From Patellaria atrata CBS 101060 (lineage: Eukaryota): DNA of 64,000 bases. Under the pieces are notes generated by a model. That model made no database searches. It was not told where the DNA came from and saw only the letters and a list, made by a program, of their open reading frames with translations. Location: the NCBI GenBank assembly GCA_010093705.1, contig MU006092.1:254623-318622 (forward strand), read 5' to 3'. The translations under genes were made by a program, and so were the position numbers. Below are positions 9,850 to 62,061 of this stretch, in pieces; within the stretch, counting starts at the first letter, position 1; every line of letters begins with the position of its first letter.

Positions 9850-12509
9850 TTTGCCGTTAGTTCGAGAGTTGACAGAGCTGGAGAAGTTGCAAAGCTGCCT
9901 TTTCTCTAGTAGAGACTGTGGTGACTGAGGGCCGTTTGTAGTGATTCGTCCTTTGAAATGACTGCGAGCGAATTGACTGGCAATTCTGACTATCTGGGTA
10001 TACCTGTGTAGGCTGTAGGGGAGCTCTGGGCTGCAATTGATTGCGAGATGTCTTTAAGGCTCCAAAGGAATGTAGCCGTTTAGAGATGCTTGATCTCTGG
10101 AAAGAGTGAAAAAGTGGAAAAGAAGGGAATGGACGAACGTACGCACGACCTCAAGTCTGTAAAGAGTGGACAGTTGAGGAGAGGAAGGCGAAGTTCTTGT
10201 AGGTGGGAGAAGAGCATGGGATAGGGAAAAGTTAGACAGAGAGAAAGACGACCGAAAAGTAGCTGCAGGGGTAAATCTGTCTAGCATTCTCCGTTAACGA
10301 ATAGGAATAAGATGCCCCTGACAGTCCACGAGTCCGGCGGGGCCTCCAGCGATCCCATCAACGGCTCCGGTACCTTGATTTGCAGCGCTTTCACCCACTC
10401 CAGTTACCTCTGTACCGACTCACCGTAACTTTTTAGCTCCTAGCCTTTCGACAATCTTGACAAGTCGAAAAAACTCTTTAGACATACTGAAGCAAGTAGA
10501 AAGAACTAGGGGAATCTCAAAGAAGTATCTCGCAATACATGTTCCTAGTATCTGCGGGCTTCCGGGGAAACCCCTTTTCTGTTCTTTATGCATTCATATT
10601 ATCACGTTGTAAGACCTCACAGCGACGTGTTAGCATCTCAGGTCTCAGCCCCAAAAACCAAGCGGGTATGGGTGAGCTGTTATTCCAAACGTACCCATCC
10701 GGCCTGGGAACCGACAAATCGCAAGCAAAATCCCGACGACGTTTCTTTAAACCTCAGGAAACAATTGGTAGCGATTCACGCCATTATTCAGGTACGCCCG
10801 GCGGATCGCTGCCCAGCTCAGGGGTGGATATTCTTACGTTGCGATACCACCACGACAACTCAACTCCAACTTTCAAGCAACTTGTTTCTAACTTGTACTC
10901 TCACCAGTGTTGTACAGTATTGTTCCGTCCTTTGATTGCCGTCTCGCCCTCTGTACTCTCGGTGAAATGCTGTTGGGTCTACTAAGGACAACCTTTTACT
11001 GTACAGGACAGTACGTGAACAATTTAGTACAAGAAGACATTTCTAATTTGCAAAGTATCTTCCTTTGCCACCAGCCAGTACAATTCCGTTCTTTAGTAAC
11101 TCTTTGGTATTCACATCGTTCTATTCTGCTCTTCCAGTTACAATATTTTCATAGAGAATGTGTTAGCATCCGCTCGGCACCTTTTCAAACTCAACATTCG
11201 ATGTGCGATTTTCCGTCAATCAGTCCTTTAAGCGTATGCAGCTTGGAAAATCCTTCATACAAATCTGCAAAGTAAGATTTTTGTGGACCTTTCTCACAGA
11301 CTTCCAGAATTTTGGTTGGATTCTTTTACCCTTCTAACCAGAAGACTGCGTCCCCGGCTGCATAGGCGCGAAAGTAAGGTTATCGCTATCGATATGTTCC
11401 CGTCCCCATACCCGAAATATGATAACCTTAACTCGATCGTCCACCTCACAAGAGATGGGTTAGATAGAACAAACCTGAAATCGTTGATTTCCTCCACTGT
11501 GAGGTCATTGCTTTCCTCTCTGGAATTGTCTACATTATTATCTGCACGATCTATAAAGCTAAAGGTATTCTAGAAGAACAGTCCTCTGGCGGAACTTTAA
11601 GCTGTATCACCGTTTAAGAACCTTCAAGAAAAGCAGAAATGATAAGGCCTATAAAGTGGAAAATCGTCTGATATCTCAGGAACACGAACTGCCAGGGGTT
11701 TCTCTAAGCTTTATTTATATTACTTATACTTATTAGTAAAGTATCAGAATGTTTCGACGATCAAGGTTCCTACCTGTCTATTTTACGTCTCCGATTGAAT
11801 GTGCTATCAAAACATGTTAAAGAGCTAGGAAAACTGGAGTAAAATACGAACAGCAATGCGTAAAACAATGCGTTTTGATGATTGTCGTAATTTAAGTCGT
11901 TCTCCGACCCTCTGGTTTATGTGTCTGTTCGACTATAACCTTTATTTGTAAAACAGAAGACATATACTACTAACAACATTGAATCTATTTCTAGAACTAT
12001 AACAGTATCCGGCACTCCAGCACTTACGCGGTAAGAATACTTCACAAATTCTCGTTATGGCTACTTCTCATTAAAGTTATTCAACCAGGGAAGGGATTAC
12101 CCAGACTGATTATGAGATATGGTGTTAACACCCAGGTGAGCAATTGATGTTCACATCTTAACGGTAACGTCTACAGTGGCTATTACCTTCACTTAACGTG
12201 GAAATCTTTTGTACGAGTACAATGTCTTTACTTCACGTGTTGTGTTGACGGATTCAAGGGGATAATAAGTAGATTTTCACTGTTCTAACTCATGATCAAA
12301 TCGATTGCTTGAGTGTTCCAGAATAAAGTTTACATGTACACTTAGCTCTTCAAACTTAAATACTGCTACCATTAAGCACAGTATCATTTCTTTCCTCAAA
12401 TAAATCCGAAGCAAAGATCACAACTCAACAGCGAAACAACTATCTTGACAGAAGAATCTTTTCCCTTTCTAAAACATCACTCATCTCGAATCACTATATA
12501 CTTCTTTCA

Positions 12510-13832
12510 ATGGAAAGTGGCAACCAATCCCAAAATCTGGCCATATTGACAGTCGTTGGAAACCGTCTAGCTAAATACCTCCAGGGCTCTCGCCGACCGG
12601 CTTGGGTCGAGGATCTTCCAGATGAACTCCTGGAAATGCTCTCATATAACCTAGAACAAGGGGACCTCGCAAATCTATCTCTTGTATCAAAGCGGACCCG
12701 GGACGTCAGCGTACGGGCTCTGTACAAGGACATAACCGTAGTGGAAGAAACTGCTGGCTCATCTAAAGCTTTGTCGAGAATCAAGAGCATGTTTCGTATC
12801 CTTATGGAAGCCCCAGAGTTAGGAAAGTATACGGAATCCTTTACGGTCAGGTGTAGCGAGAGTCTAATTCGTGGAACGTGTCCGACTGTACCGTTTGATC
12901 CTAACGGGAAAGACGCCCAGCTGATTAGCTTATTCACTCAAAAGTTTTCTCAAGTCAATAATCTCGCAGGTCTTGGGCCAGGTCTACGTGAAAACAGGTT
13001 TGGTGTACTTGTTATCGTCCTTCTGTTTTGCTTCCCAAAGCTGAGACGTTTGGACCTCACCTTTGATGGATTGTGCTCCGCAAGTTTCTTTGAACTTTTT
13101 GAAGCAACCTTGAAAGGCCAAGAAATACCATTCTTTTCGCAACTTCGTAAAGTAACATATAAGGAGTTATGGGTGGGCCCAGAGGCACGCCCATGTCTTC
13201 TTCATAGATATACTCTACCCGAGAGCGGCCCTCTCACGTGGTGTCCGACTTTCTCACTCGAGACGCTCGACCTAGCTGGAACTTGCGTCGATGCTCAAGG
13301 TTTCAGGGCTAGTTTGGCGTTATACGGCAACCTGAAGGTTCTACGCATGACGGACTATTGGGCGATCCACGATATATCTGGAGCACTTTATCAAGTCAAG
13401 GATACCCTAGACGTTCTTCACCTTGGCCGCCGTTATCATAGACAGTCTGTGCCGTTCCGACTTGATTTCTCGAAATTCAAGAAACTCCATACATTGGTTA
13501 TCAACAGTTTGGATTTCCCCAGCGCAGGGCATGGCATACCTGTCAACCTTGAAAACAAGTTTCCAGCTAGCCTCAAGCACCTCACATTTGTTCACATTCC
13601 ACTTCGTGGCTCGTGGATGACTGTGATCTGTCGAGAGGAGTGGGAGATGATTGACGATCTCACGAATGGCTTAGCTAATGTTCAGTTACCGAATCTACAG
13701 GATGTCAAAATCGTCTTTCCCAATAAGCGGGCTATATTGATTGAAGCACGGTGGAATGAGACACATAATCAACATAATTTCCGAACTTTCTGTAGGGCAT
13801 CTCGAGAATGCGTTTTATCAATTCACTTGTAG
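12510..13832 (+). CDS. F-box domain protein with LRR-like C-terminal region
   Basis: 440-aa ORF with F-box motif DLPDELLEMLSYNLEQGDLANLSLVSKRTRDVSVRALY. LRR-like segments PKLRRLDL, SLETLDL, NLKVLRM, KKLHTLVI, SLKHLTF. Confidence 0.85.
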   Translation: MESGNQSQNLAILTVVGNRLAKYLQGSRRPAWVEDLPDELLEMLSYNLEQGDLANLSLVSKRTRDVSVRALYKDITVVEETAGSSKALSRIKSMFRILMEAPELGKYTESFTVRCSESLIRGTCPTVPFDPNGKDAQLISLFTQKFSQVNNLAGLGPGLRENRFGVLVIVLLFCFPKLRRLDLTFDGLCSASFFELFEATLKGQEIPFFSQLRKVTYKELWVGPEARPCLLHRYTLPESGPLTWCPTFSLETLDLAGTCVDAQGFRASLALYGNLKVLRMTDYWAIHDISGALYQVKDTLDVLHLGRRYHRQSVPFRLDFSKFKKLHTLVINSLDFPSAGHGIPVNLENKFPASLKHLTFVHIPLRGSWMTVICREEWEMIDDLTNGLANVQLPNLQDVKIVFPNKRAILIEARWNETHNQHNFRTFCRASRECVLSIHL

Positions 13833-19803: not shown

Positions 19804-20992
19804 CTAATACCCGTTCATAGTCATGCGCTGTGAGTTCCGGCTCAGCTCCCTGTCTGCGGAGGGAGAGATGGGCCGGCTGCCAGTGTGACCTTGAACGGCG
19901 CTGCTCTCCTTGAGAGCAAGCAGTTGCTTCGCGCGGAAGGACTCGTAGTGGATCTGCGAAGTTGTTTCGATTAGATCCTGAAGGTGGGTTCGGGTAAGGA
20001 AGTTGCGCAGGGCAACGAATTCGCAGTGGGACTCATCCTCGACTAAGAGGTATTAGTATGGAGAGCAACTTGGGTGAAACGAGTGATTTACCATTGATGA
20101 CACCCCAGCGGTTTTGACGACCACGGACCTGCTTGCCACCTACTACGATGGTCTTCTCAGACCCAACGACAGCGAAAGGAATGGTTTCCTACAGAGTATG
20201 AGCATGATAATATTGCGAAATTTTCCGAGTGGAATACCTTGATGCGTTCGTTTAACTCGATTTCCTCCCTATCGTGCTCTTCATTCTCATAAGGATACAT
20301 CCTCAGATTATGGAAAGCAAACTCCTCCTTTATCCTCTGCTTGAAGGTTGCCCTCTCTTCTAGCGTCAAAGAGTCACTCTTAGCAATGACTGGCACTACA
20401 TTGACAAACTCAGAAAGCTTCTTGAGAACAACGATATCAATGGGCTTGAGCGCGTGTCCAGATGGCTGGATGAAGAACAAGCAGCAGTGGATTCTAGTAT
20501 CCTGTAGATATCTCTCACGCTGTGCTGTCAACTCCTTACGCAAATACGCGCTGTGCTGGTCCTTGATATACTTGACAATCGGGTCCCAGCAGCGATCATT
20601 ATTTATAAGATCGCCGTAACCCGGTGTATCAACAATGTTGAGCCGCAGACGGACACCATTCTCCTCGATAACGTGTGAAACGGGGGAAATTTCGGTTGTG
20701 CTGCGAATGGGTTCCTCTGGTGCTAGACGACCTTTAGAATCCATCAAGTGGGAAGCGAAGATCGTATTGATGAGCGTAGATTTCCCGAGACCAGTCTGGC
20801 CTGTATTGAAATTAGTATAAGCATCTCAAAATAATTGCCTCGATATTTCATACCAACGCAGATGATATTGAACTGGAAACCGCGCTTCAGCAGCTTCTTC
20901 TCAATTTGCTGAGTGATGCTGTCGAAACCGACATGGCTCTTTGGGTAGACCGACTGCGGCAACGGTGACAGAGGGGAGTTCACGGTTGCCAT
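19804..20992 (-). CDS. CDC10: Septin Cdc10/AspD; three introns
   Basis: HVGFDSITQQIEKKLLKRGFQFNIICVG|QTGLGKSTLINTIF, DTPGYGD, HCCLFFIQPSGH, VPVIAKSD, ending ...RMTMNGY*. No C-terminal coiled coil, as expected for the Cdc10 group. Confidence 0.97.
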
Positions 20993-41763: not shown

Positions 41764-43458
41764 TCATCCGGGCACCAAAATGCCGTCTTTGCAAAGGACA
41801 ACAACCTTCTTGAAGAACCGCCTCCACTGCAAAGGATCGCCCTTCGCCTTGACAAATCTTACTTCTACAAGCTCTTCGCTGATTCTCTCTGCCGTTATAG
41901 TTCCCTTCAATGCTTGCTGTCGAGTATCATGTGTATCGATTTTGATCCACACTTGACCCTCAGCTGCCTCTTGAACACGCGATGCTACGCCTAAGTTATG
42001 CAGCGCTTCGACCAGAAGTGGTGCAAGGAGCGACAACGAGAGCGGTGAGAGAAATCGTGCCAAGGAATACGCCGGCACGATGTCTCGAAATCGTTTGGCC
42101 ATCTGAGTGAGAGACAAAGGAACTGAAGGAGTCGGTGTAAACTGTGAAAGGGACGGATCATCCGCTATCTGATCTAACAAGCCATGGGATATGCGGGTGT
42201 GGTGCATAGGTTGACTTGCGCTGACGCCTGCTGCTGCAATCCTGGGAGGCTTCTCCCAGTCAAAGGGATTATTATCTAGTGGGGTCTCTGGCTGGGTTGC
42301 AGCAAATCTTGGAATATCTAGATCCATCGCATCATTTTGACTATCACGTTGTGATAATGTGGGTTGTGCGTTAAAGTCAATGCGTAGGTTCTCCAACATT
42401 TGCGTGGCGAGACTAATTGGGTTGGCAGCCGTACCTGATGAACTCAGATGAGGGTTATGCCGAGTAAACCAAGGATGAGTTCGAACTTCGTCCAGCGTAA
42501 ATCTCTCTTTGGGGTTAAGTTTTAGCATTCCTCGAAGCAAGGAAAGGATTTCAGAGGGGATCTTTTTCCAGAGATCATCGCCCATTCGGCCATTGCTCGC
42601 CACGTATTGATTGAATTCATAACTTTGTTGCGTAGGTTCATCCCATGGCGTGTTTCCGACGAGAAGAACGAATAGTACGACGCCACAAGACCAGATATCG
42701 CAGATGTCGGGTGCGTATCCTGAGGCGAGAATATCCTGCCGCTTGTGTCTCTTCCCAGAAACAATTTCCGGAGCAATGTATGGTGGGCTGCCACAGACTG
42801 TATTACACAGTCTTACCTGCGATTCTCCTACTTTTCTGAAAAGTGCCGCAAGTCCAAAATCGGCGAGTTTCAGATTGCCCTCACCTGAAAGTAGAATATT
42901 CTCTGGCTTGATATCTCTGTGTGCCACTCCTTTCGAATGCATATAACTGACAGCGCTGATCAATTGGGTGAAGTAAAAGTGTGCGATGTCCATTCCTACA
43001 CCGACATCTGCTTCAATCTTGTCGAAAAGATCTCCACCATCAGCCAACTCCATAGCAATCCAAGTCCACGATACATCTTCGCCTGAAGCGAGAAAATGTA
43101 TTATATTCTGATGCTTCCCTAGGAACTTGTGTAGAGCGAGCTCTTTTTGGAGTTGTTTCGGCTGTAGGCGTCCTTGACGAAATGCATGTGCCTTGTTGAT
43201 GAATTTGACGGCGATGACAGGTTTCGGTTGATCGGTGGGGCATGCTTTTCGTATACTAGGATTCCAGGTCAATAACGAGCTCATGTTAACATCGTGTATA
43301 CTTACAACGCGTATGCACCGAGTCCAATTGTCCGTGAGATGATGCGAAATGGTAGGTCGTCTGGCAGAGGTGTGGTTTGAGACTGGGCGTTTTATTTCAG
43401 TAACAGGTTGAGTGGACAAAGGGATCGTGTATCATACACTTGGTGGAGGAGCACCCAT
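41764..43458 (-). CDS. CHK1: Checkpoint Ser/Thr kinase Chk1
   Basis: Predicted exons give MGAPPPS|SQTTPLPDDLPFRIISRTIGLGAYAF|IRKAC. Motifs GGDLFDKIEADVG, HRDIKPEN, DFG, CGSPPYIAPE, GNTPWDEP, SQ/TQ sites, and C-terminal KA1-like GDPLQWRRFFK. Confidence 0.95.
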
Positions 43459-44254: not shown

Positions 44255-46925
44255 TTATGAGGTAGTGCTACGGGAAGAGGACGAGCCGAAGGTGCCACAC
44301 GAAAGGTTGTCTAGGTTTCGTTCTTGGAGAATTCGCGAATATCGGGGTTCTCTCATGAACTTTGGAACAGAGTCCTGGGAATTTATTAGCCGGTGATTGG
44401 ATGTGGATGAAAATGCAATGCTTACGCTAGCCATCAATTTGAAAACGGAGTTTTGTGCCTGGTCGAAAAGACTTGCAACCTCATCTAGACTCTTAATCAT
44501 GGCTTCGTCGTCACCAACAGCACGGGTCATACGTCCAGCAAGGGCAGTCCGCAAGCTATGGTCAATGTTGAGTTCACATGGAGATCCAGGCGCTAAGAAC
44601 GCGTTGTACAAGCCTATCACCAATCAGGAAGTGTTCATGACACAATCTCATGCACATGAGTAGAGAAACTTACTGTAAGCAGCTGCCAATGTCTCCCTGA
44701 TGACCTCCAACTTGGGCTTATTACCACCCCGCTTGGCATTTGCGTAGCCGGTCAAAAATTCGCTGACATCCAGATAGAAAGAAAGGTTTTCCTCGCAGTG
44801 CGTATCTCTCAAGAACTCTCGGAACAGCAGTCGTAATGCCGGATCACGAATGATTACCGACATCCTATTTGCGTTGGAATCTCTTGTCGAGCTAGCGGCA
44901 GGTCGGTCACCGTTCATAGATGGTTTGGGGCTATCCCGGTTCCACCCAGCTATTCTTTGTCCCTTGGGTGTGACATAGTAAATGGCTGCCTTAGTCGGTT
45001 GGAAACGAGTCGTTTGCGGGGTAAAAATTTCGACTGGAGCCATGAGTTCGTACTCGAGGAATAAGGTGCACATCTCGTACGTTTCACGCTTGTCAACCAT
45101 GGTGGTGCAGTCCATCAACCAATCCGATGCAGCTTTCCCCGTAAATGTATTTAGATAGACCTTGTCGTTGATCTTACGTTCTCGTGACATCTTGACACCA
45201 ACTAGGCCGGTAGAATAATCGTTCAATGAATCTGAGTCTGAACTGCTGCTGTTGCTCCTCACATTCGGACCTTCACTGCCCGCAAACCTCCTAAAAACTA
45301 CTTCGACGGTTGCCTGATCATGATTGAGTTTATCAGTGTCGACTTCTCGCTCTAAAATGACAAGATGCATAGTATTTCGCGGAGACTCCAGAACGTCGAA
45401 AACGTGACGCTGATTTATCCCGTTCCTCTGGCAGAAGCGCTGTAAGACTTGCATGCCTTTCGGTGTCAGTTGCCATACAGCGCTCTTCGAGCCAAAATCA
45501 TTCTTTCCGTCAGCCGATTCACAGAAATGGGCTTCGAGAAATTTGGTGCACACAGATTTTGCCATCTCTTTCGCCATGGAAAAGGTAGTTGTGGTCGTTG
45601 TCGTAACTATCCTAGATGGATCTTTCGGATCTGGCATACGGTTTGACTGAGAGAACTTAAGAGAACCGAGATTAGTGATAGCCTCATCGGAAGTAAACGT
45701 GTGTTCGATCTTCTGGAACCGTACTCGATGCGGAGTGAGCGGTAAGCTCACCATGAGCGTCGAGAAAAGGTCCTTGAAGTCCTGCTCAAGGGTCAGATTA
45801 GCAAATCTAGTATTCTTATACATTGCAATGAATTGAAGTGTAATTGGAGAATGACACCGGCGACAATGGATATAATGTAGGTGAGCTCAATCTCCACGTG
45901 AGTTGGTGTTGTGTTACGAGGTCAAGATGCAGAAGACAAGAATTGCCGCGACCACAGTTCCACAAAACATTCGCACAACGACGATCTAGAGCGGCGCTAA
46001 CAATGCTTCCTGACAGGAGTAGACAGCTCGACTGTTTGTGCAACTCACTACATGTCGCCGAGTGCCTCCTATCTCGGTGCCCGGTCTCGGCACGATTTAC
46101 CGACGACACAAACGAATCGATCACGAGTTACAAGTTCAAAGAAGTGAATTATTTTTTTTTTTTACTTACTCTTGTAAATGGCCGCTCATCATCCGTCATA
46201 CGGAGGAGCCGTGAAGATGTTTGGTGCATTTTACGGTCCAAAGCACCTTTCGAAGGTGGAAGAGAACCTATTGTTTCCGGCGTAGTCGGACGAGCAAGCT
46301 CGAAGAGCTTGCCGTCTCGCAGGTTACCGAGTCTGTCAACCGGATCCTGGTGAGGTGTCCCAGACCGAAGTGGCGTGGTAGGACTGTGAGACCGTGTTAT
46401 AGCCGGAATCGGATTGTCCTGCGTCTGTGGCAGCACCTCCACAGAGTGTGTATCCGGGTATTCGGGTTGGTCGCGTGGTTGCAGCTGCGAATAACTCGAT
46501 CTGCGAAGAGTTCTTTGAAGCCTCGAGGCAGCGGTCGGTTTTCGGAACTTTGTGGATGGACGCTTGTCACCGTTGGCTAGAGATGAAATATCTCTATTGT
46601 CCCAAGTATACAAGCTAGGCGAAGCACCACGTCGAACGGTCGAACCAGCGCATGCGTCGGCGGTCGTAGAGTGGCTTCGACGATGGGATACAGATATCTG
46701 AGCTTGGTCAAGGAGGCTTGCCGGAGCAGAAGTCGTAGAGACGTTCGTTCGTGAAGTGGGAGATTCGGGTTTGGAAGCGGCAGTACGGTCCCGTCCTCTG
46801 GAGAATTGGTAGGGGAGTCGAGTTGTGCTGTTGAGTCGACCGGACGATGTTGAAGATGTGTATGAAGGGAAAGGGTGCTGAAGGTGAGTGAAAAGAGGAG
46901 GTAGAGGAGTACTAGTATGCGACAT
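44255..46925 (-). CDS. flbA: Regulator of G-protein signalling FlbA/Rgs1 (DEP-DEP-RGS)
   Basis: MHQTSSRLLRMTDDERPFTR|DFKDLFSTL...SNRMPDPKDPSRIVTTTTTTTFSMAKEMA; RGS box DPALRLLFREFLRDTHCEENLSFY...YNAFLAPGSPCELNIDH...FKLMAS|DSVPKF. Three introns. Confidence 0.96.
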
Positions 46926-49900
46926 CTGGGCGGGTTTGGTCACTCTTTGGGCTAAGAGGATTAGAGAAGGCTAAGGGTAAGATACCTTCTTTGTTTCTTG
47001 AGAGGGAAAAGGGTGGGTACGACGCGGACTGGAGCAACAGGGATGAGCACAAGTCTGCACAGACAGTTCGGTGCTAATGAGTTACTTGCTAACGTTGACC
47101 AATGCTGAGACATTTCCATAGGTGCTCTGGCAGTTTGGCAGCCTTTTACTGGGCACCCAGTCACCTCACTCTGGGCAATTTTTTCGGTGGGCGTCGCTGG
47201 GTGCATGCTGGGTTGTGATGCTCACTTGTGCTGAGACTTGGGGGCCACCATCGGCCACTTGGGTAATGAAGCGTCAGCCAAAGACGGCCAAAAAGCACCC
47301 AAAAGCACGCCAAAAGGATTGAACCTTGTCCTCCCACGTTGCAAGCACGGCAAGCAAAACCCACACCCCTCCCCCAACCACGAGGAGATTCCAGCCTAGG
47401 TATAGCCCCGTTCGCGCCTGCCTGCAACCCGACACGCAAAACTCTCTCACCTCGAAGAAACCCTCTCTAACGGAATATACAAGTCTAGGTATCCGTACTG
47501 TATCCCATCAAAACCATCCCTTTTCTTTTCTCTATCAAGTTTCTTTCTACAGTACCTTCACACATCCCGCCAAAGGGGAAACTAGGGCAGCAATGCCGTG
47601 TATGCAGCTAGTACGCGATACGCCTAATACTTTACAAGTACCGTACAGTACGTCCTCGGGCTGGGCTGTTCTCACCGCGAAACCAAAATTTCTCAAACAT
47701 GCGCCATGCACGTCTGACTGAGCCACCGCTCATCCGCTCAAACATCCCAATTCCATATCATCGTAAAATTTGTGCGTAAGGCCGCGAGGCGAAAAATGCT
47801 AAAAAGGAGAAAGTAACTTTTTTTCTCATTTCGTTTGATCTCGGAAATCGAAATTCGAAACTTCACCGTGCGCAGAGCTTTGTCGAAACGTCAATTACAT
47901 TATTCCGTCCAGGCGATCCCGTCCTCGTACAGTTGATACTGTATAATACTGTTATGCATTACTTATGATATCCGAGGTATGGATGCAACGCTCATGACGC
48001 ACTCGTTTCTGCTGGCGCGCTGCATCCAATGCTGGCACGTTGACAATTACCGGCTAGGACTGTTACAGCCTATTCAACGTTCGAAGCAAATTCGACACCA
48101 TTAACGACTGAAGAACGCAAATACTTTGAAGAAGAAAAAAGGAGTTAACATATCGATCGTTTCTAGACCAAGTTACGATCCACTCCCCTCTGCATCGTAA
48201 TAAAATAGCGAGGCCTCGGTCTTTTACCGAACGTCCCTCTAGCACCTGCAGCACCGTTTAAAGTATACATCCGTATATTATAAGACACATCGTTGACGTG
48301 TAACCTAATGTCCGGTTCCATATGGCCGGCGAGCCTGCGAAGGCTGAGAGATTCCATGTAGAGCGACAATATTCGAAGTTCCAGCAGCACTGTATGGTAA
48401 GCCTACTTCAACAGAAATATCTCGTTCAGTTGCATGTGGATAACCCCTATCTACTGCAGTTATTCTGCACAATAAAAAGATGTCATTGACGAGCTATTAC
48501 AACCTTAGTTACAGCTCTGGGGGCTTTCTTTGATTGCTCGAAAACACTCCGCATCTCCATACAGGAATATTCATTGAACATCTGTGACGAGTAGCTGTTT
48601 CGGAAACAATCGACAGTGGCGAACCACACTGCGTAAAGAGATGATCAGCTCAGACAGACCACGTTGCAACCATGTCGAAATCTACGATGGGTCACCTAAA
48701 TCTATCTCCAACAATAATGCAATAATTAAGCGCCGCCATGCAAGCAAACCGTGCGTTTTATCTTTCGAGAACGAAATATCAGCCTGAACAGAACAACTAT
48801 GCGTTTTAGGAGATCCCTTCGACAACTCAAAATCGCTTTTCATTGAGTTACAAACTTACGAACCAAATCTCTCCTGTCGTGTGTACTGGGATTACATCTT
48901 GTTCCGTGAGACAGCCACATATAATCCACAAATTTTTCACAGCGAGCCTGTGGGGGAGATATTAGTCACAGGCTCTTTGCCGACTCCAAACCTCATTACG
49001 TTTAACGGCTTCAAAATGCTTATTAGGAGTCAGCCTCAATCAGGAGTCATGACAGCTGCCAGATGTTAATCTCGACATGCCAAACTGGTATACCCTGATG
49101 CTTGTGATAGTAATAAGAATGCTTGTGAGGTTGGGACGTTGGTTCCCGAAAAATAGACCATGCTTGTCCTAAATTGTACCTATATACAAGCCATCTTGGG
49201 TCTCGATTCAAGCTACATTTTCATAGAGATCTTCTAGATTTCTACATTAAATTGTTCCGATAGCTACGGCATTCAATCTAAACAATGCGAATTGGGCCTT
49301 CTTGTTCTATCGTTCTCGGGGAAGTTCTACAAAGTATCATGCATATTATTACAGGCATGTAAGGTCCAATTCCCAGGAGGACGATAATCCCGAATTCATA
49401 TTAAGGACTGGAGGAAGACCGAAACCTCCACTATCGTACCCGCTCTATGGTTTATAGGATGTGGGAGCCGCAAAGTGCGCCGCTTTCCCGCCATTATGGT
49501 TTTTACCCGTATGTGAACCACGGCCAGAAATTCCATGGCCTGTCTCACATGCACAACAAGAGACGATTTTCTAGTGATGCATAGCATCGGGTACTGTACC
49601 ATAGCGTGGAAGTTCTGCTAAAATGTTCTACTTCCGTGATGCTGATTCTAACGCATGGCTTACGCAGAGCAATACGTATCATTATCTGGAGATTTTAGTT
49701 CTATGGCTCTGCGGCACTGTATGTGAGCTCTGGCTGATGAGTAGTCTGGTTTTGACTTTTTCGGTGCCCGAGATCAATGTTGGTGTGTGTGTTCAAAGGA
49801 TTTGATACCTTACTCTCTTCAACTAACGACTTCGCTCCCTACCTGGATACCCGTATCCGTACAGTCATCGTTTATACACAATCTTAAAAACAGTACCTTT

Positions 49901-55397: not shown

Positions 55398-58300
55398 TCA
55401 AACAATCCCATCCCCAGCCGAATGCATAAACCTCCTCTTCCTCTTCACAAACACCTTCCTCCTCAACCCGGCCTTGACAATCTGAGGCACAGGACTCTTA
55501 TCCCTCGTCTCCTTCTGCCGCGGTATCCTCATCTTCATCTTATCCGGATTTCTCGTCCGCTTGCCCCTCTTCCCATCCTCATCCTCGCTCTCGGGCATAA
55601 TGTCGACCGGGATGCCCCCGACCGGAGTCCACCAGTCGCTGTCGTAATTATCGAGAGGATCCCGAACGAGGTCGAAAGCCGAGAAAGATTCGTGCAGGAA
55701 TCGATCGCGCGGGTGCTCACCCCATGTTGACAGCTGGCGGAGGACTCGACTTTGTGCGTTTTGTGCAGAGCTTGATGCGACGGAGGTTGGAGAGAGCGGT
55801 TCGAAGTTCGAAGTTGGAGAGTCTAAGTCTTGAACGTAGCCATCGATCTCACCGCTGACTTCACATAAGATTGACTCGGTTGACTTCATTGTAGTGTCGT
55901 AAAAGGAGTCAGGCGGGGTGTTTAGAATCGGTTCTTCGACTTTAGGGTGCATGAAAGGTAACTGGTAGGAAGTCTTCTCGTATGGAAGTGATGGGCCTTC
56001 TTGTGTCCAGTGACAAAGAGAAGGCAGAGTTGGTGCCCTAAGGCAGAGATCGTCCAGTTGCTGACGTGAAGTGTAATCAAGCGAGTCGAGGAACTCTTTT
56101 CCAAGGACGATATCGTATGGTGCATCAGACGACACAACGAAAGGTATAGTATAGTGAGCTCTTTCTCCAAAAGAAAATGGTAAATGAATGCGTTTCAGAT
56201 CGAGTGCTTGCACTCTGAAATTCGAGAAACCTCGGTCCGAAGAAGAAAGAGACTGAAGATGGTCCAACAAGAATGTGGTGGATATGGTGTTAAAAGAGCA
56301 AGAGATGTCTACTAAGGCCCCCACACCCAGATCACCTAGTTTGCTATGCATAAGTGCAGGATAAGGCTTTGACTCAGTAGATTCATGCTCTTGAAATAAG
56401 TCTAGAGTTTGACTCAGGTAATGGACATTGCTCCATGAAAGGGTCTGGTCCGATCTGTTCGAATCTGAAAGAAAAAAAGCTCTCAGGACCAAAAGCGATT
56501 GGAAAATGGCTGCTTGTTGCACGAAGAGGCTGAAAGTGTAAGCATCAATACTCTCGGTGAGAGGAATGCTATGAGATGAGGAGTAATTAGGCGGATCCGT
56601 CTCTGTATATGTCTGCACAACCAAGTCATCGCAAGACATCTGACACGTTGGAAGTGTTGACGGAAAGAGTTGGCCATAATAATCTAGGTGTGAAGTCTCT
56701 TTACAATAAGAGGAGTCGTTTCTAGATCTGTGACTTAACAGCGCTCTCAGGGCTCTCGTAGTATTCAAGATCCGCTTCCAGAGAGAAGTTGTCATGCCCG
56801 ACTGTCTGGATGTGAGTTCAGAAGAATCTTGAAGCATTTCATAACACTCATAACATTTGGTGACTTTGTCGTTCTGATGGCCCTTAGTGCATTCTCCAAA
56901 AGGAACACTGAGAGGTTTCATGAAATCCCCTAGTCGAAGATTCTCGCCGTGTTCGAATAACCCAACAACATACGTCAGCATTTTAGAACGTTGCTGACAG
57001 TCGAGGAAAGTTGAGTGTTCCGTAGTAGACGGCGTATAACGACAGCTGCCGCGATGAAGCCAGTTTAGAAATGGGCACAGTCGCCAATCAAGGAGACTTG
57101 CCAGATCATACTGTGCAGGGAATCCATTCTGCGAACGCACAATGCATTCTGCAGAGGGAGGTACTAAAGTTGAGAAGGGACCTAGCGTGAGAGCTTTATA
57201 AGAGTGAAAAAAGATATTCTGGGCAGCAGGAGCCACACCTGCAGCATCAAGGCAAGATATGCAAGCACCAAATGGGTCTCCTTTCCTTATTTTAGAGACG
57301 ATCTCTGCAGCTTTTGGTCGGTTGGATGCGTTGAATGCCAACATGTCCTTGCAGATACTCAGCAACTCAATGGCCTTACGCTTAACAGTGCAATGACGTA
57401 AAGTGTTAATCCATAATTGGATTTGAGGAAGCTTGGTCTGGTATGTATTCTGTTTCTTGTTCTGCTGGGGAGAAGCATCGATAAACTGTCGTAGATCGGA
57501 GAGCGAACCATCTAATAAGACCGTAAGAATTTCGAGGAAGACACAGCCAAGGGAGAAGATGTCGGCAGATCTTCCATGCTTCTTGTGTTGGGCTATCTCG
57601 GGAGCAGCATACATTGGGGTCATAGGACTGATGCTGGAAGATGTTGAATCTGTATCAGAGACTACCCGTGATATTCCAAAGTCCGAAAGGTATACTGTTG
57701 TATCACGACCACTACCGGAAATGAGGATGTTTGCAGGTTTTACATCGCCATGACGAATCCGATTTGAGTGAACATGTGACATTGCTGAGGCGAGACAACC
57801 AACCCAAGACCAAATATTATTATCTTGGTCTGACGCGGATTTCGATGTCTCCAAGAAATCTTTGAGGTTGCGCTCTGCGACAGGATACATGATGATGCTG
57901 AGAGTAGTTATCTCATTGTACGCGGCAGCCGCTTTCAGGATATGCGGATGATGGAGTCGCCTCATAATATTGACCTCCAATGCGAAGCGACGAAGAACGG
58001 ACGAGCGTCCTTTACTATTTTTGATCTGTTTTCGAGCAAACACAGCTCCCGAATTCGTGCTTTGGACTTTATCAACGCGACCATAGGTTCCTTCTCCAAG
58101 TGATCCTAGAGAGACAAAAGGACGAATAGGGAGTGAGACCTTGGTTACTGCTCTAGATCTCCTTGGTGCTGGGATTTGAGAAAAGTCCCAAGACGTGTTA
58201 TCTTGTAACATACTCAGATTCTGTGTATTGGAGAGATTCATGTACCTCTGCTCATATGAATTATCAAATTCATTACTGAACGTGCCATCAAATTCTCCAT

Positions 58301-59818
58301 TGAATGTATAGTAATCATAATTGTCTCCGAGCGGGCCAAAACTAGGGTCATTATTATCTGAGCCTGGATTTGTGTCTTTGCCGTTATTACCGGCTCCTGC
58401 ATCGCCGCCTTGGTCAGGGGGGTTATTATCAGGAGAATCGTCCTGGTCATTATCATCATCATCAGAGTGGTATGTAGGAGGTTCGTCCTCTGGCCAAGGA
58501 TCCCTCCAACGGTCCATGGTCCACGGTCCTCCAGGAATTTTGTTTTTAAAGTGACGAAAGATATGTGTATTTCGCTTTTTCCAGTTGAAAAACCGCTGAC
58601 CACAAAATCCGCAGCGCCTTTTGAATGTTGGCGGAACATCGAACTTCGACTTGTTCACGAGATCATCAAGTCGCTCCACGAATAGTTGATTCCGGTTCTT
58701 GTCTAATAAATCTGCGTGTTTATTTTTGATGTGTTCGATTAATTTGTCCTTACGATGTGCGATAAAGTGATGACGCCGTGATTGAGTGCGACACCGAATA
58801 CATGACCAGATCTCCTGTGGTTGATTGATTTCTTCATGACGTTGCCAATCATCCTTTCTTTTACTCTGGTAACCACACCCCGAAGTGCAATGCAAATCAC
58901 CCGAAGGATTCTTCTGGGGATGACTGGATCGTGTGCACTGACCTGAAGCTCTTTGAATGTAGTCATTGATACTGACTCTCACGTCTTCCGGATTGGCTGG
59001 ATTAGTGACTTCCGCAGCAAGAACTTGTGGGGTATCTCCAGGAATAGAATCCTCCGTTTTTATTCCATCGGAGTTTGAGTTCGAAACATCGACTTTGTGA
59101 CCAACATCGACTTTAGGGACATCCTCGAGCTTTCTTCCAAGCTTATATTCAAGCCAGGCAACCAATGGCTTTTTTGGAAGACGAGTGAGCGTAACCAAGG
59201 CTTTGATTTCAAGCCTTTCCGGTGGACGATTCCCTTCGATCTCCAACCAGAATTCTAATTGCTTTCGAGCCTTGTCTGGGATTGTAGGAGATGTCTGGTT
59301 TACGATATCCTGTTCACGTCGTTGAAATTTCCGGGGTTGTTCGGGTGAGTTGACATCAGGACTTTGGTCATTATCTGACCGTCGTCTTTTTTTTCTCACT
59401 TGTCTTTGCGGAGGGACCTGCAATGATAGTTTAGGTGCAGATGGGGAGGCTGTCGATTCTTTGGCTGAGTTAGGGCGACGAGACATTTCGGGGGATAGAT
59501 TTCGATTTCCATCCCTTCGAGCCGTGTTGTAAGGAGACGTTTGAGTGCCGTATGCTTCGTCGGTAGTGGTAGATTGCTGATGATTCAATCAGTTGTTGTT
59601 CTTGTAGAACAGAGGGTTGGCTCACTAACCAATAATTGAGGGTCTAAACACTTATCATCCAAGAGAGCCTTAGTGGAAGATGTGTAGTTGTGTCGTGCAA
59701 AGGGTGAGCCAACTGAAAAGGCATTAACATGTTGGTCCTGAGGTAAGTATGTACTCGGAGAAGCCGTAGGAGTGCCCCGGGGGCGGCGAGCCCCCGAAGG
59801 GGCGGTAAAAGGAATCAT
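55398..59818 (-). CDS. ~1455-aa multidomain protein: homeodomain-like, C2H2 zinc fingers, Ser/Thr kinase, retropepsin-like domain
   Basis: Exon 1 is 59630-59818 (MIPFTAP...DPQLL). An intron at 59577-59629 (GTTAGT...ACTGAT...CAG) joins it in frame to the 1396-aa ORF. Kinase motifs GEGTYG, FARK, HGDVKPANIL, DFG, YAAPE, ADIFSLGC. Zinc-finger motifs CTSGC...WQRHE and CGFCG...HIFRHF. Protease-like ALVDISCSFNTIS...YDIVLGKEFL. Confidence 0.88.
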
Positions 59819-61389: not shown

Positions 61390-62061
61390 CTAATGTATGT
61401 ACATCCAAATACCCTGCATGAATGAAAGCTCTAAAAGGCGAGGATTTACATAATGATTCTCAGTATTGATATACGGGTCTGATGGCTCCCAGGGCAATGC
61501 AAATATGGTCGGAGTAAAATTGTATCCCACACCCTCAAGATTATCTGAGGCGTGTTCCCTCTCTAGACCGGTGTACTGGACCCCATCAGTGATAGTCATT
61601 GGCGTAGGTTCTTGATTTCCGGGTGTTCTGACAGGTGGTTCTTGTATTTTGGCTGCTTAACCCGCGTCAGCGATAGTGATAGTCATTGGCGCAGGTTCTG
61701 GGATCTCTGGTGTCGTGAAAGGGAGTTCTGGTATCTTGGTTACCAACGCTGTCTTACTGTATTCCACGTGGAGTTCAAATCCGTGCGCCGGATCCCTCCA
61801 TCATTTAGGTCACCTAGGCCGACGTCCATGAATGCATATGGATCTGTGTACTAAATCTGTGTACTAAATCTGTGTACTGGATCCTCTAGTCCACCATTTG
61901 AGGCGGAATCCAATCGGCCCCGGTTCGTAAGTTCTGTCCGTCCCTCCGCCAGGTTGGTCAGAAGCTTGTGTGTACGTACTGGGATATGGGTCAAGTAGAT
62001 CCAAGAAAGATCCAAATACGGTAAGAGTATAACCGTATTGCGCTCCATCAAAGCTATCCAT
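61390..62061 (-). pseudogene. Decayed gene of unknown function with an internal ~87-bp repeat and a 13-bp triplication
   Basis: Repeated peptide KIPELPFTTPEIPEPAPMTIT / KIQEPPVRTPGNQEPTPMTIT separated by a stop codon. ATCTGTGTACTAA occurs about three times at 61843-61878. Confidence 0.45.

Follow-up and report, generated by a model that had tools for sequence, protein, structure and literature searches.

Within a 64,000-nucleotide stretch of contig MU006092.1 of Patellaria atrata CBS 101060 (GenBank assembly GCA_010093705.1; the whole stretch is hereafter the window), the minus strand of positions 55398–59588 encodes a predicted protein, P0001, in which a divergent homeodomain, three C2H2-like zinc fingers, an acidic linker and a protein kinase without the Arg of the HRD motif (non-RD) are followed by a C-terminal half with a retropepsin-like domain. 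Sequence comparison indicates that homeodomain, fingers, linker and non-RD kinase together are the conserved core of a fungal protein family. We lean, giving the account somewhat more credence than doubt, towards reading P0001, from a filamentous ascomycete, as a single multidomain signalling protein whose tail would be a non-catalytic pairing or binding module and whose kinase would be the output. The gene model and the regions of the protein are the following.

59630..59818, minus strand: putative first exon, ATG at 59818, 63 codons, from a reading of the sequence
59577..59629, minus strand: putative 53-nt intron, GTTAGT...CTGAT...CAG, from a reading of the sequence
55398..59588, minus strand: reading frame of P0001, 1396 codons, with the stop codon at 55398–55400
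59376..59396, minus strand: basic patch RKKRRRS, residues 65–71, nuclear-localisation-like by its pattern
59130..59282, minus strand: divergent homeodomain, residues 103–153, from predicted fold and family profiles
58551..58892, minus strand: three C2H2-like fingers, residues 233–346, from invariant ligands and a family profile
58248..58490, minus strand: acidic Asp/Asn/Gly-rich low-complexity linker, about residues 367–447, read from the sequence
57294..58109, minus strand: Ser/Thr protein kinase domain, non-RD, residues 494–765, Pfam Pkinase E 3.2e-44
56352..57293, minus strand: orphan Cys-rich region, about residues 766–1079, with no detectable family and not HET
56070..56351, minus strand: retropepsin-like domain, residues 1080–1173, from a transitive link via the protein P0122, placed by tblastn
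55428..55571, minus strand: basic C-terminal tail (KRGKRTRN ... VKRKRRF), residues 1340–1387, of putative function

The frame at 55398–59588 is uninterrupted over its 1396 codons, with no in-frame stop, and is by far the longest of the window. All five regions that the initial annotation of this DNA had assigned to a single chain lie within it. The unfamiliar C-terminal half is no exception, since its 627 codons contain no in-frame stop, against 25–34 for each of the five other frames and a mean of 29.4 (minimum 16) in 1000 nucleotide shuffles; the whole frame, tail included, is therefore taken to be maintained coding sequence. Within the open reading frame (ORF), a scripted regular-expression search found no canonical in-frame intron. 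At the 5′ end, the putative exon at 59630–59818 fuses in frame to the main ORF once 59577–59629, which has GT..AG ends, is spliced out, and Met35 (59486) offers an alternative start. The stretch occurs in two public sequencing runs, both of DNA, whose contigs match the window exactly and may be its source; the search gave no RNA run. The window as a whole has just eight ORFs of at least 200 amino acids (aa).

The kinase is the sole domain that Pfam calls directly on P0001 (Pkinase, PF00069, 151.8 bits), and its closest structure in the PDB is NEK1 (E 2.9e-27), with CDK2 also among the best matches. All catalytic motifs could be located, namely the G-loop, Lys520, Glu538, H613-G614-D615, Asn620, DFG (636–638) and APE (662–664); with the Pfam match and this full set of motifs, the identity of the domain is unambiguous and it looks intact, in agreement with the apparently complete kinase of the initial annotation, whose HGD in place of HRD corresponds to residues 613–615. 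Loss of the Arg extends to the whole family, with HMD, HLD, HGD or HHD at this position in 19 of the 19 family kinases listed.

For the N-terminal module, an AlphaFold2 (AF2) model computed from an alignment of five relatives has three helices in the segment of residues 103–153 (model positions 11–24, 31–41 and 45–56; block-mean predicted local distance difference test score (pLDDT) 79–86), arranged as in the three-helix homeodomain fold. A VIA structure search of 48,161 chains, which is independent of Foldseek, returned homeodomains in all of its top 17 rows (Z 7.1–6.2), the best being MATa1 (1akh_A; Z 7.1, root-mean-square deviation 1.6 over 48 residues), followed by Exd, TGIF1, Meis2 and others; as the tool itself remarks, a Z below 8 can reflect a common small helical arrangement, so that this match is modest taken alone. 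A six-sequence family profile of the helix segment finds TGIF1 in the PDB at E 1.2e-4, and its top eight rows are all homeodomains. At the aligned position, moreover, the relatives encoded by metagenome loci L003–L005 match Pfam Homeobox_KN (PF05920; E 2e-6, 27.7–28 bits, cut-off 24), and the feature-based neighbours of P0001 in the Atlas include Homeobox_KN clusters from Ascomycota that lack both kinase and tail (scores 0.92 and 0.90, to be read as a lead only). A single-sequence PDB search with the helix segment gave no homeodomain, its best row being ribosomal protein S24e (E 0.33), and Foldseek with the N-terminal model gave nothing at E ≤0.001. The homeodomain-like three-helix segment noted earlier is borne out by predicted fold and family profiles, despite the lack of a Pfam match on P0001 itself. 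As a separate observation, the N-terminal module of L003, L004 and L005 is recognised by Pfam under the labels Homeobox_KN and Homeodomain (E 2e-6, 5e-5).

Homeodomains are defined in their recognition helix by Trp48, Asn51 and Arg53. The corresponding stretch of P0001 reads W145-L-E-Y148-K-L150, so that Trp48 is kept (W145), Asn51 is replaced by Tyr148 and Arg53 by Leu150; likewise, Trp48 is kept in all six aligned family homeodomains, and Asn51 and Arg53 are absent from all six. Canonical DNA reading is therefore doubtful, and residues 103–153 are probably a homeodomain by descent and fold rather than a canonical DNA reader. The role as a transcription factor that had been proposed for P0001 thus finds no support in any of the six sequences.

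The fingers follow a pattern in which ten Cys/His ligand columns are invariant in five of five aligned sequences. Finger 1 is formed by C234, C238 and H251, with Gln256 at the position of the second His in P0001; finger 2 by C263, C266, H286 and H291, in a C-x2-C-x19-H-x4-H arrangement with a 19-residue spacer; and finger 3 by C326, C329, H342 and H346, with canonical spacing and the C2H2 ligand pattern. Searched against the PDB, the family profile of this region matches Zif268 at E 6.4e-5, and the best Foldseek rows are C2H2 arrays, if weak ones (best E 0.02, none at or below 0.001). It is these invariant columns and the family profile, not Pfam, that substantiate the C2H2 cluster. The acidic Asp/Asn/Gly linker is directly legible in the sequence, and a similar D/N/G-rich stretch comes after the fingers of the relatives P0002, P0003 and P0004.

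These three proteins are the relatives that, in a search with the whole protein, reach beyond the kinase. The nearest full-length one, P0002 (1060 aa, from a Logan assembly), is 27% identical over P0001 residues 103–767, that is, over homeodomain, fingers, linker and kinase; like P0001 it has no HET domain, and its 280-residue tail is unrelated to that of P0001. P0003 (JGI, 1427 aa) and P0004 (‘protein kinase D signaling’, Pleosporales sp., 1308 aa) combine fingers and kinase with a HET domain. Together with the metagenome loci L007–L032, they share with P0001 the divergent homeodomain, the ligand columns of the three fingers, the D/N/G-rich linker and the non-RD kinase clade; these proteins end in HET (Pfam E 1e-15 to 7e-26), whereas P0001 ends in the orphan region and the retropepsin-like domain. 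A further ascomycete protein, P0123 of Glonium stellatum (‘C2H2-type domain-containing protein’), has a finger module 39% identical over 160 residues and lacks kinase and tail, with no homeodomain-like segment in the alignment. The P0003 cluster comprises seven near-identical members on JGI contigs of 4.4–4.8 kb, barely longer than the gene, which would fit transcript-derived assemblies.

With the N-terminal alignment as query, 35 loci were found in metagenomes; 26 ORFs from 21 of them were scanned with Pfam, the other 14 being short contigs or apparent duplicates. Pkinase is followed by HET in 15 of the 21 scanned loci; in three the kinase is followed by the end of the contig, in two the homeodomain is, and one has fingers only. 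Some loci are near-duplicates from different samples, and the 15 with HET are therefore not 15 independent lineages. By comparison of coordinates, the N-terminal match, kinase and HET lie in a single stop-free frame in ten loci, and in family members the frame of the kinase runs on for 300–500 residues beyond it. Elsewhere, the N-terminal module and the kinase–HET part occupy different frames or ORFs, in L002 (5638–7425 and 7377–10115) and L032 (1106–1609 and 2040–4808), for which introns are the likely cause; in L005 the kinase is found in the ORF after that of the homeodomain module, which suggests an intron or a frameshift between the two.

In a tree of the kinase domain, the family forms one clade (100/100) against eight outgroup kinases. 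P0001 and P0002 branch at its base, outside a clade (94/92) that unites the other 20 family members and contains every HET-bearing one, and because of this position the tree does not separate a loss of HET here from a later gain. Full-text searches of the literature found no description of a family with homeodomain, C2H2 fingers and kinase, with or without HET. The family is thus a recurrent and apparently undescribed combination of well-known domains, within which the tail of P0001 is unique. As for the four-domain architecture that the initial annotation did not recognise, the trio of homeodomain, C2H2 fingers and kinase proves recurrent, and the retropepsin-like tail was found nowhere else among the sequences searched.

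The assignment of that tail comes from an exhaustive HMMER search of 1.84 billion representative proteins with residues 771–1396, which had a single match, P0122, at E 4.2e-4 over residues 1080–1175. In a control, the real match scored 32.9 bits and the best of 1000 shuffles 7.0. Pfam Asp_protease_2 matches P0122 (284 aa) at E 9.4e-12 over the protein as a whole; for the second domain on its own the value is E 8.5e-4, over profile positions 3–88 of 90. In the BLASTP alignment of the two proteins, GALVD-I-S-C stands opposite LALPD-T-G-C and YDIVLGKE opposite YDVILGQH. The motif GALVD1094-I-S of P0001 is encoded at 56280–56321 and YDIVLG (residues 1158–1163) at 56088–56117, so that the hallmarks of the fold, hydrophobic-hydrophobic-D-x-x and then Y-D-h-h-L-G (h, hydrophobic), occur in the same order in both proteins. 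Via P0122, P0001 resembles the retropepsin-like families of clan AA (Asp_protease_2, PF13650; gag-asp_proteas, PF13975) in domain length and order of motifs; it differs from them in its D-I-S for D-T/S-G, in having one copy only and in the lack of a direct profile match. It also lacks the UBL and UBA domains that presumably partner the RVP domain of Ddi1. P0122 itself, encoded on a Logan contig of 1816 nt, has two tandem retropepsin-like domains in one chain, both with D-T-G, and would be a single-chain pseudo-dimer of retropepsin units; it has no solved relative in the PDB at E up to 1.

Other searches with the C-terminal half were negative. Pfam and NCBIfam gave no match, and no aspartic-protease profile reached E 10; a word-indexed homolog search of 5.8 billion proteins (the subset of 767–2443 aa) found no relative of residues 775–1396; the Atlas gave nothing usable; a single-sequence PDB search returned unrelated weak rows, the best being BcsB (E 0.06); and tblastn found no tail-like sequence encoded in any of the 35 metagenome loci. 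An AF2 model of residues 1040–1215, made from a two-row alignment, has a pLDDT of 32.7 and is unusable. On balance, the homology of residues 1080–1173 to the retropepsin fold is likely, and held with fair assurance: the C-terminal signature reported by the initial annotation has its motifs as described and one significant homology link, without a direct profile match. Retropepsin catalysis needs both the ‘fireman's grip’ Thr/Ser and the tight-turn Gly. In P0001, D1094-I-S-C faces the D-T-G-C of P0122, so that the Thr/Ser and the Gly are lost, though the Asp is kept, and the domain is therefore probably not a working protease.

Two further origins were considered for parts of this half. A degenerate HET domain at residues 770–1080 was rejected, since a hidden Markov model of the family's post-kinase/HET region, run with filters off, found nothing there at E up to 100, with the divergent L024 scoring E 4.5e-28 as a control; Pfam likewise gives no HET (PF06985) match in P0001. 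Descent of the tail from an adjacent retrotransposon was rejected from the surroundings of the gene: of 25 ORFs of at least 90 aa listed between 47 and 64 kb, seven overlap the gene and were left out, the 18 that were scanned match no Pfam family, so that reverse transcriptase, RNase H, integrase and gag are all missing from them, and 50–64 kb contains no long repeats resembling long terminal repeats (LTRs).

In the reading that we favour, the homeodomain and fingers would anchor P0001, whether in the nucleus, on nucleic acid or on a partner protein; they would be a tether rather than a DNA reader, since the homeodomain has lost the residues of canonical DNA reading. The disordered acidic linker would connect this tethering module, comprising basic patch, homeodomain and fingers, to the kinase, which, catalytically complete and non-RD as it appears, could serve as an active output or as a switch. 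The module C-terminal to the kinase would be the part that varies among family members; that of P0001 would be derived from a retropepsin, would have lost the catalytic signature and would most likely serve in non-catalytic pairing or peptide binding rather than as a chain-cutting protease, a role suggested by the behaviour of retropepsin folds, which pair and bind in this way when they form dimers.

Several points weigh against this account. The nuclear tether, the activity of the kinase and pairing through the tail are all inferred, and the gene, its 5′ end and its unity as a single transcript are putative, predicted from DNA alone. On P0001 itself, Pfam has no Homeobox (PF00046) match at E up to 10 and scores zf-C2H2 (PF00096) far under threshold (12.2 bits against 25.2, E 0.27), and the homeodomain Z values near 7 fall in a range that is common for small helical domains. 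The retropepsin assignment comes from one protein match, with nothing from profile libraries or the PDB search and an AF2 model of very low pLDDT, and the C-terminal half has no orthologue in either homolog search, the Atlas or the tblastn search of the 35 metagenome loci.

One alternative is that the likeness to retropepsins is due to decay of a former domain or to chance. The tail would then be a fast-evolving, largely unstructured sequence with no function at the level of a domain, and the homeodomain, fingers and kinase would constitute the working protein. The yield of the 5.8-billion- and 1.84-billion-protein searches, a single match of 95 residues, fits this view, as do the absence of a usable Atlas match, the pLDDT of 32.7 and the degenerate catalytic motif; however, 627 stop-free codons against a shuffle mean of 29 stops argue for maintained coding, and the match to P0122 covers the domain from end to end, keeps the two hallmark motifs in register and has a bit score far above the shuffles and a significant E value. 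We accordingly regard a relic or chance match as rather unlikely. Another view, that the tail is an active, dimerisation-dependent retropepsin that cleaves the chain and releases the homeodomain and finger part as a transcription factor, is a development of the self-cleavage suggested by the initial annotation. Retropepsins do act as homodimers, D1094 is retained and aligned with the Asp of D-T-G in P0122, and the long disordered acidic linker would make an accessible cleavage site. Against this stand the D-I-S in place of D-T/S-G in a segment that no profile library recognises, with no aspartic-protease profile up to E 10, a homeodomain whose lack of Asn51 and Arg53 weakens the case for a released transcription factor, and relatives that have HET, not a protease, at this position. 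Beyond the retained Asp nothing speaks for self-cleavage, which is not supported and which we consider quite improbable.

It might also be asked whether the frame is one gene at all, or rather two genes, or a gene joined recently to a retroelement fragment that is read through by chance. Its unity is predicted from DNA sequence alone and the tail differs from the core in its evolutionary history, but there is no stop in 1396 codons, the scanned flanking ORFs contain no retroelement family, no LTR-like repeats occur in 50–64 kb, and the relatives too have 300–500 same-frame residues past the kinase. A frame of either kind is, in our estimation, very improbable indeed, and the single multidomain signalling protein with a non-catalytic tail is the explanation that we retain.

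A link of P0001 to non-self or cell-death signalling is plausible. A 2023 review relates the HET domain to TIR and describes it as enough to cause fungal cell death, and notes that HET-domain genes are without clearly assigned architectures (PMC10197012). The family is therefore tied to cell-death or non-self signalling, by association only. The suggestion of non-self recognition made in the initial annotation thereby gains indirect support, in that HET sits on the same core in P0003, P0004 and 15 of the 21 scanned loci, a support that reaches P0001 itself by family membership only. A further parallel, by analogy only, is with the non-RD kinases of innate immunity, in that the Arg of HRD is missing throughout the P0001 family and in most relatives a death domain is part of the fusion; such kinases comprise the plant Xa21/FLS2 class and the animal IRAK/RIPK class, whereas the best PDB matches of the P0001 kinase, NEK1 and CDK2, are generic ones.

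Tentatively, and with more doubt than conviction, one may go further and suppose that the core defines an undescribed class of fungal proteins of cell-death or immune type with varying post-kinase modules, mostly HET and here retropepsin-derived. The degenerate DNA-binding module would then be a nuclear tether, or a bait for something that targets transcription factors, and the C-terminal module would be coupled to that event through the kinase; the logic would be like that of plant immune receptors with integrated transcription-factor domains.

Few gene families of filamentous fungi are as abundant, or as little understood, as the HET-domain genes. The present family offers a recurrent architecture in which HET comes behind a kinase and a homeodomain/finger module, together with a natural variant that has no HET and carries a retropepsin-like domain instead, and it raises the testable questions of whether the kinase gates the death domain and what the DNA-binding-like module senses. 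This family-level architecture is a more valuable result than the singleton tail of P0001, which is weakly supported and of uncertain individual importance; the tail may be an instance of the reuse of a retroviral-type protease fold that has lost its catalytic signature.

Elsewhere in the window, the following ORFs were annotated.

12360..13829, plus strand: ORF for an F-box protein
20160..20825, minus strand: ORF for a septin fragment, E 2.7e-72
41767..43431, minus strand: ORF for a second, conventional protein kinase, E 5e-56
44651..45886, minus strand: ORF for a DEP/RGS protein

The tail also has a weak tblastn match at 61650–61841 (E 0.17), close to a short tandem repeat, and this was discarded as noise. 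Some 2 kb upstream of the gene, at 61588–61739, a 65-nt unit occurs twice; the copies are 78% identical and 87 nt apart. Finally, a 273-aa ORF at 46152–46970 on the minus strand has a sub-threshold match to the phage family Minor_tail_Z (E 2.7e-4, 21.2 bits against 23.9), which in a fungal genome is probably due to chance.

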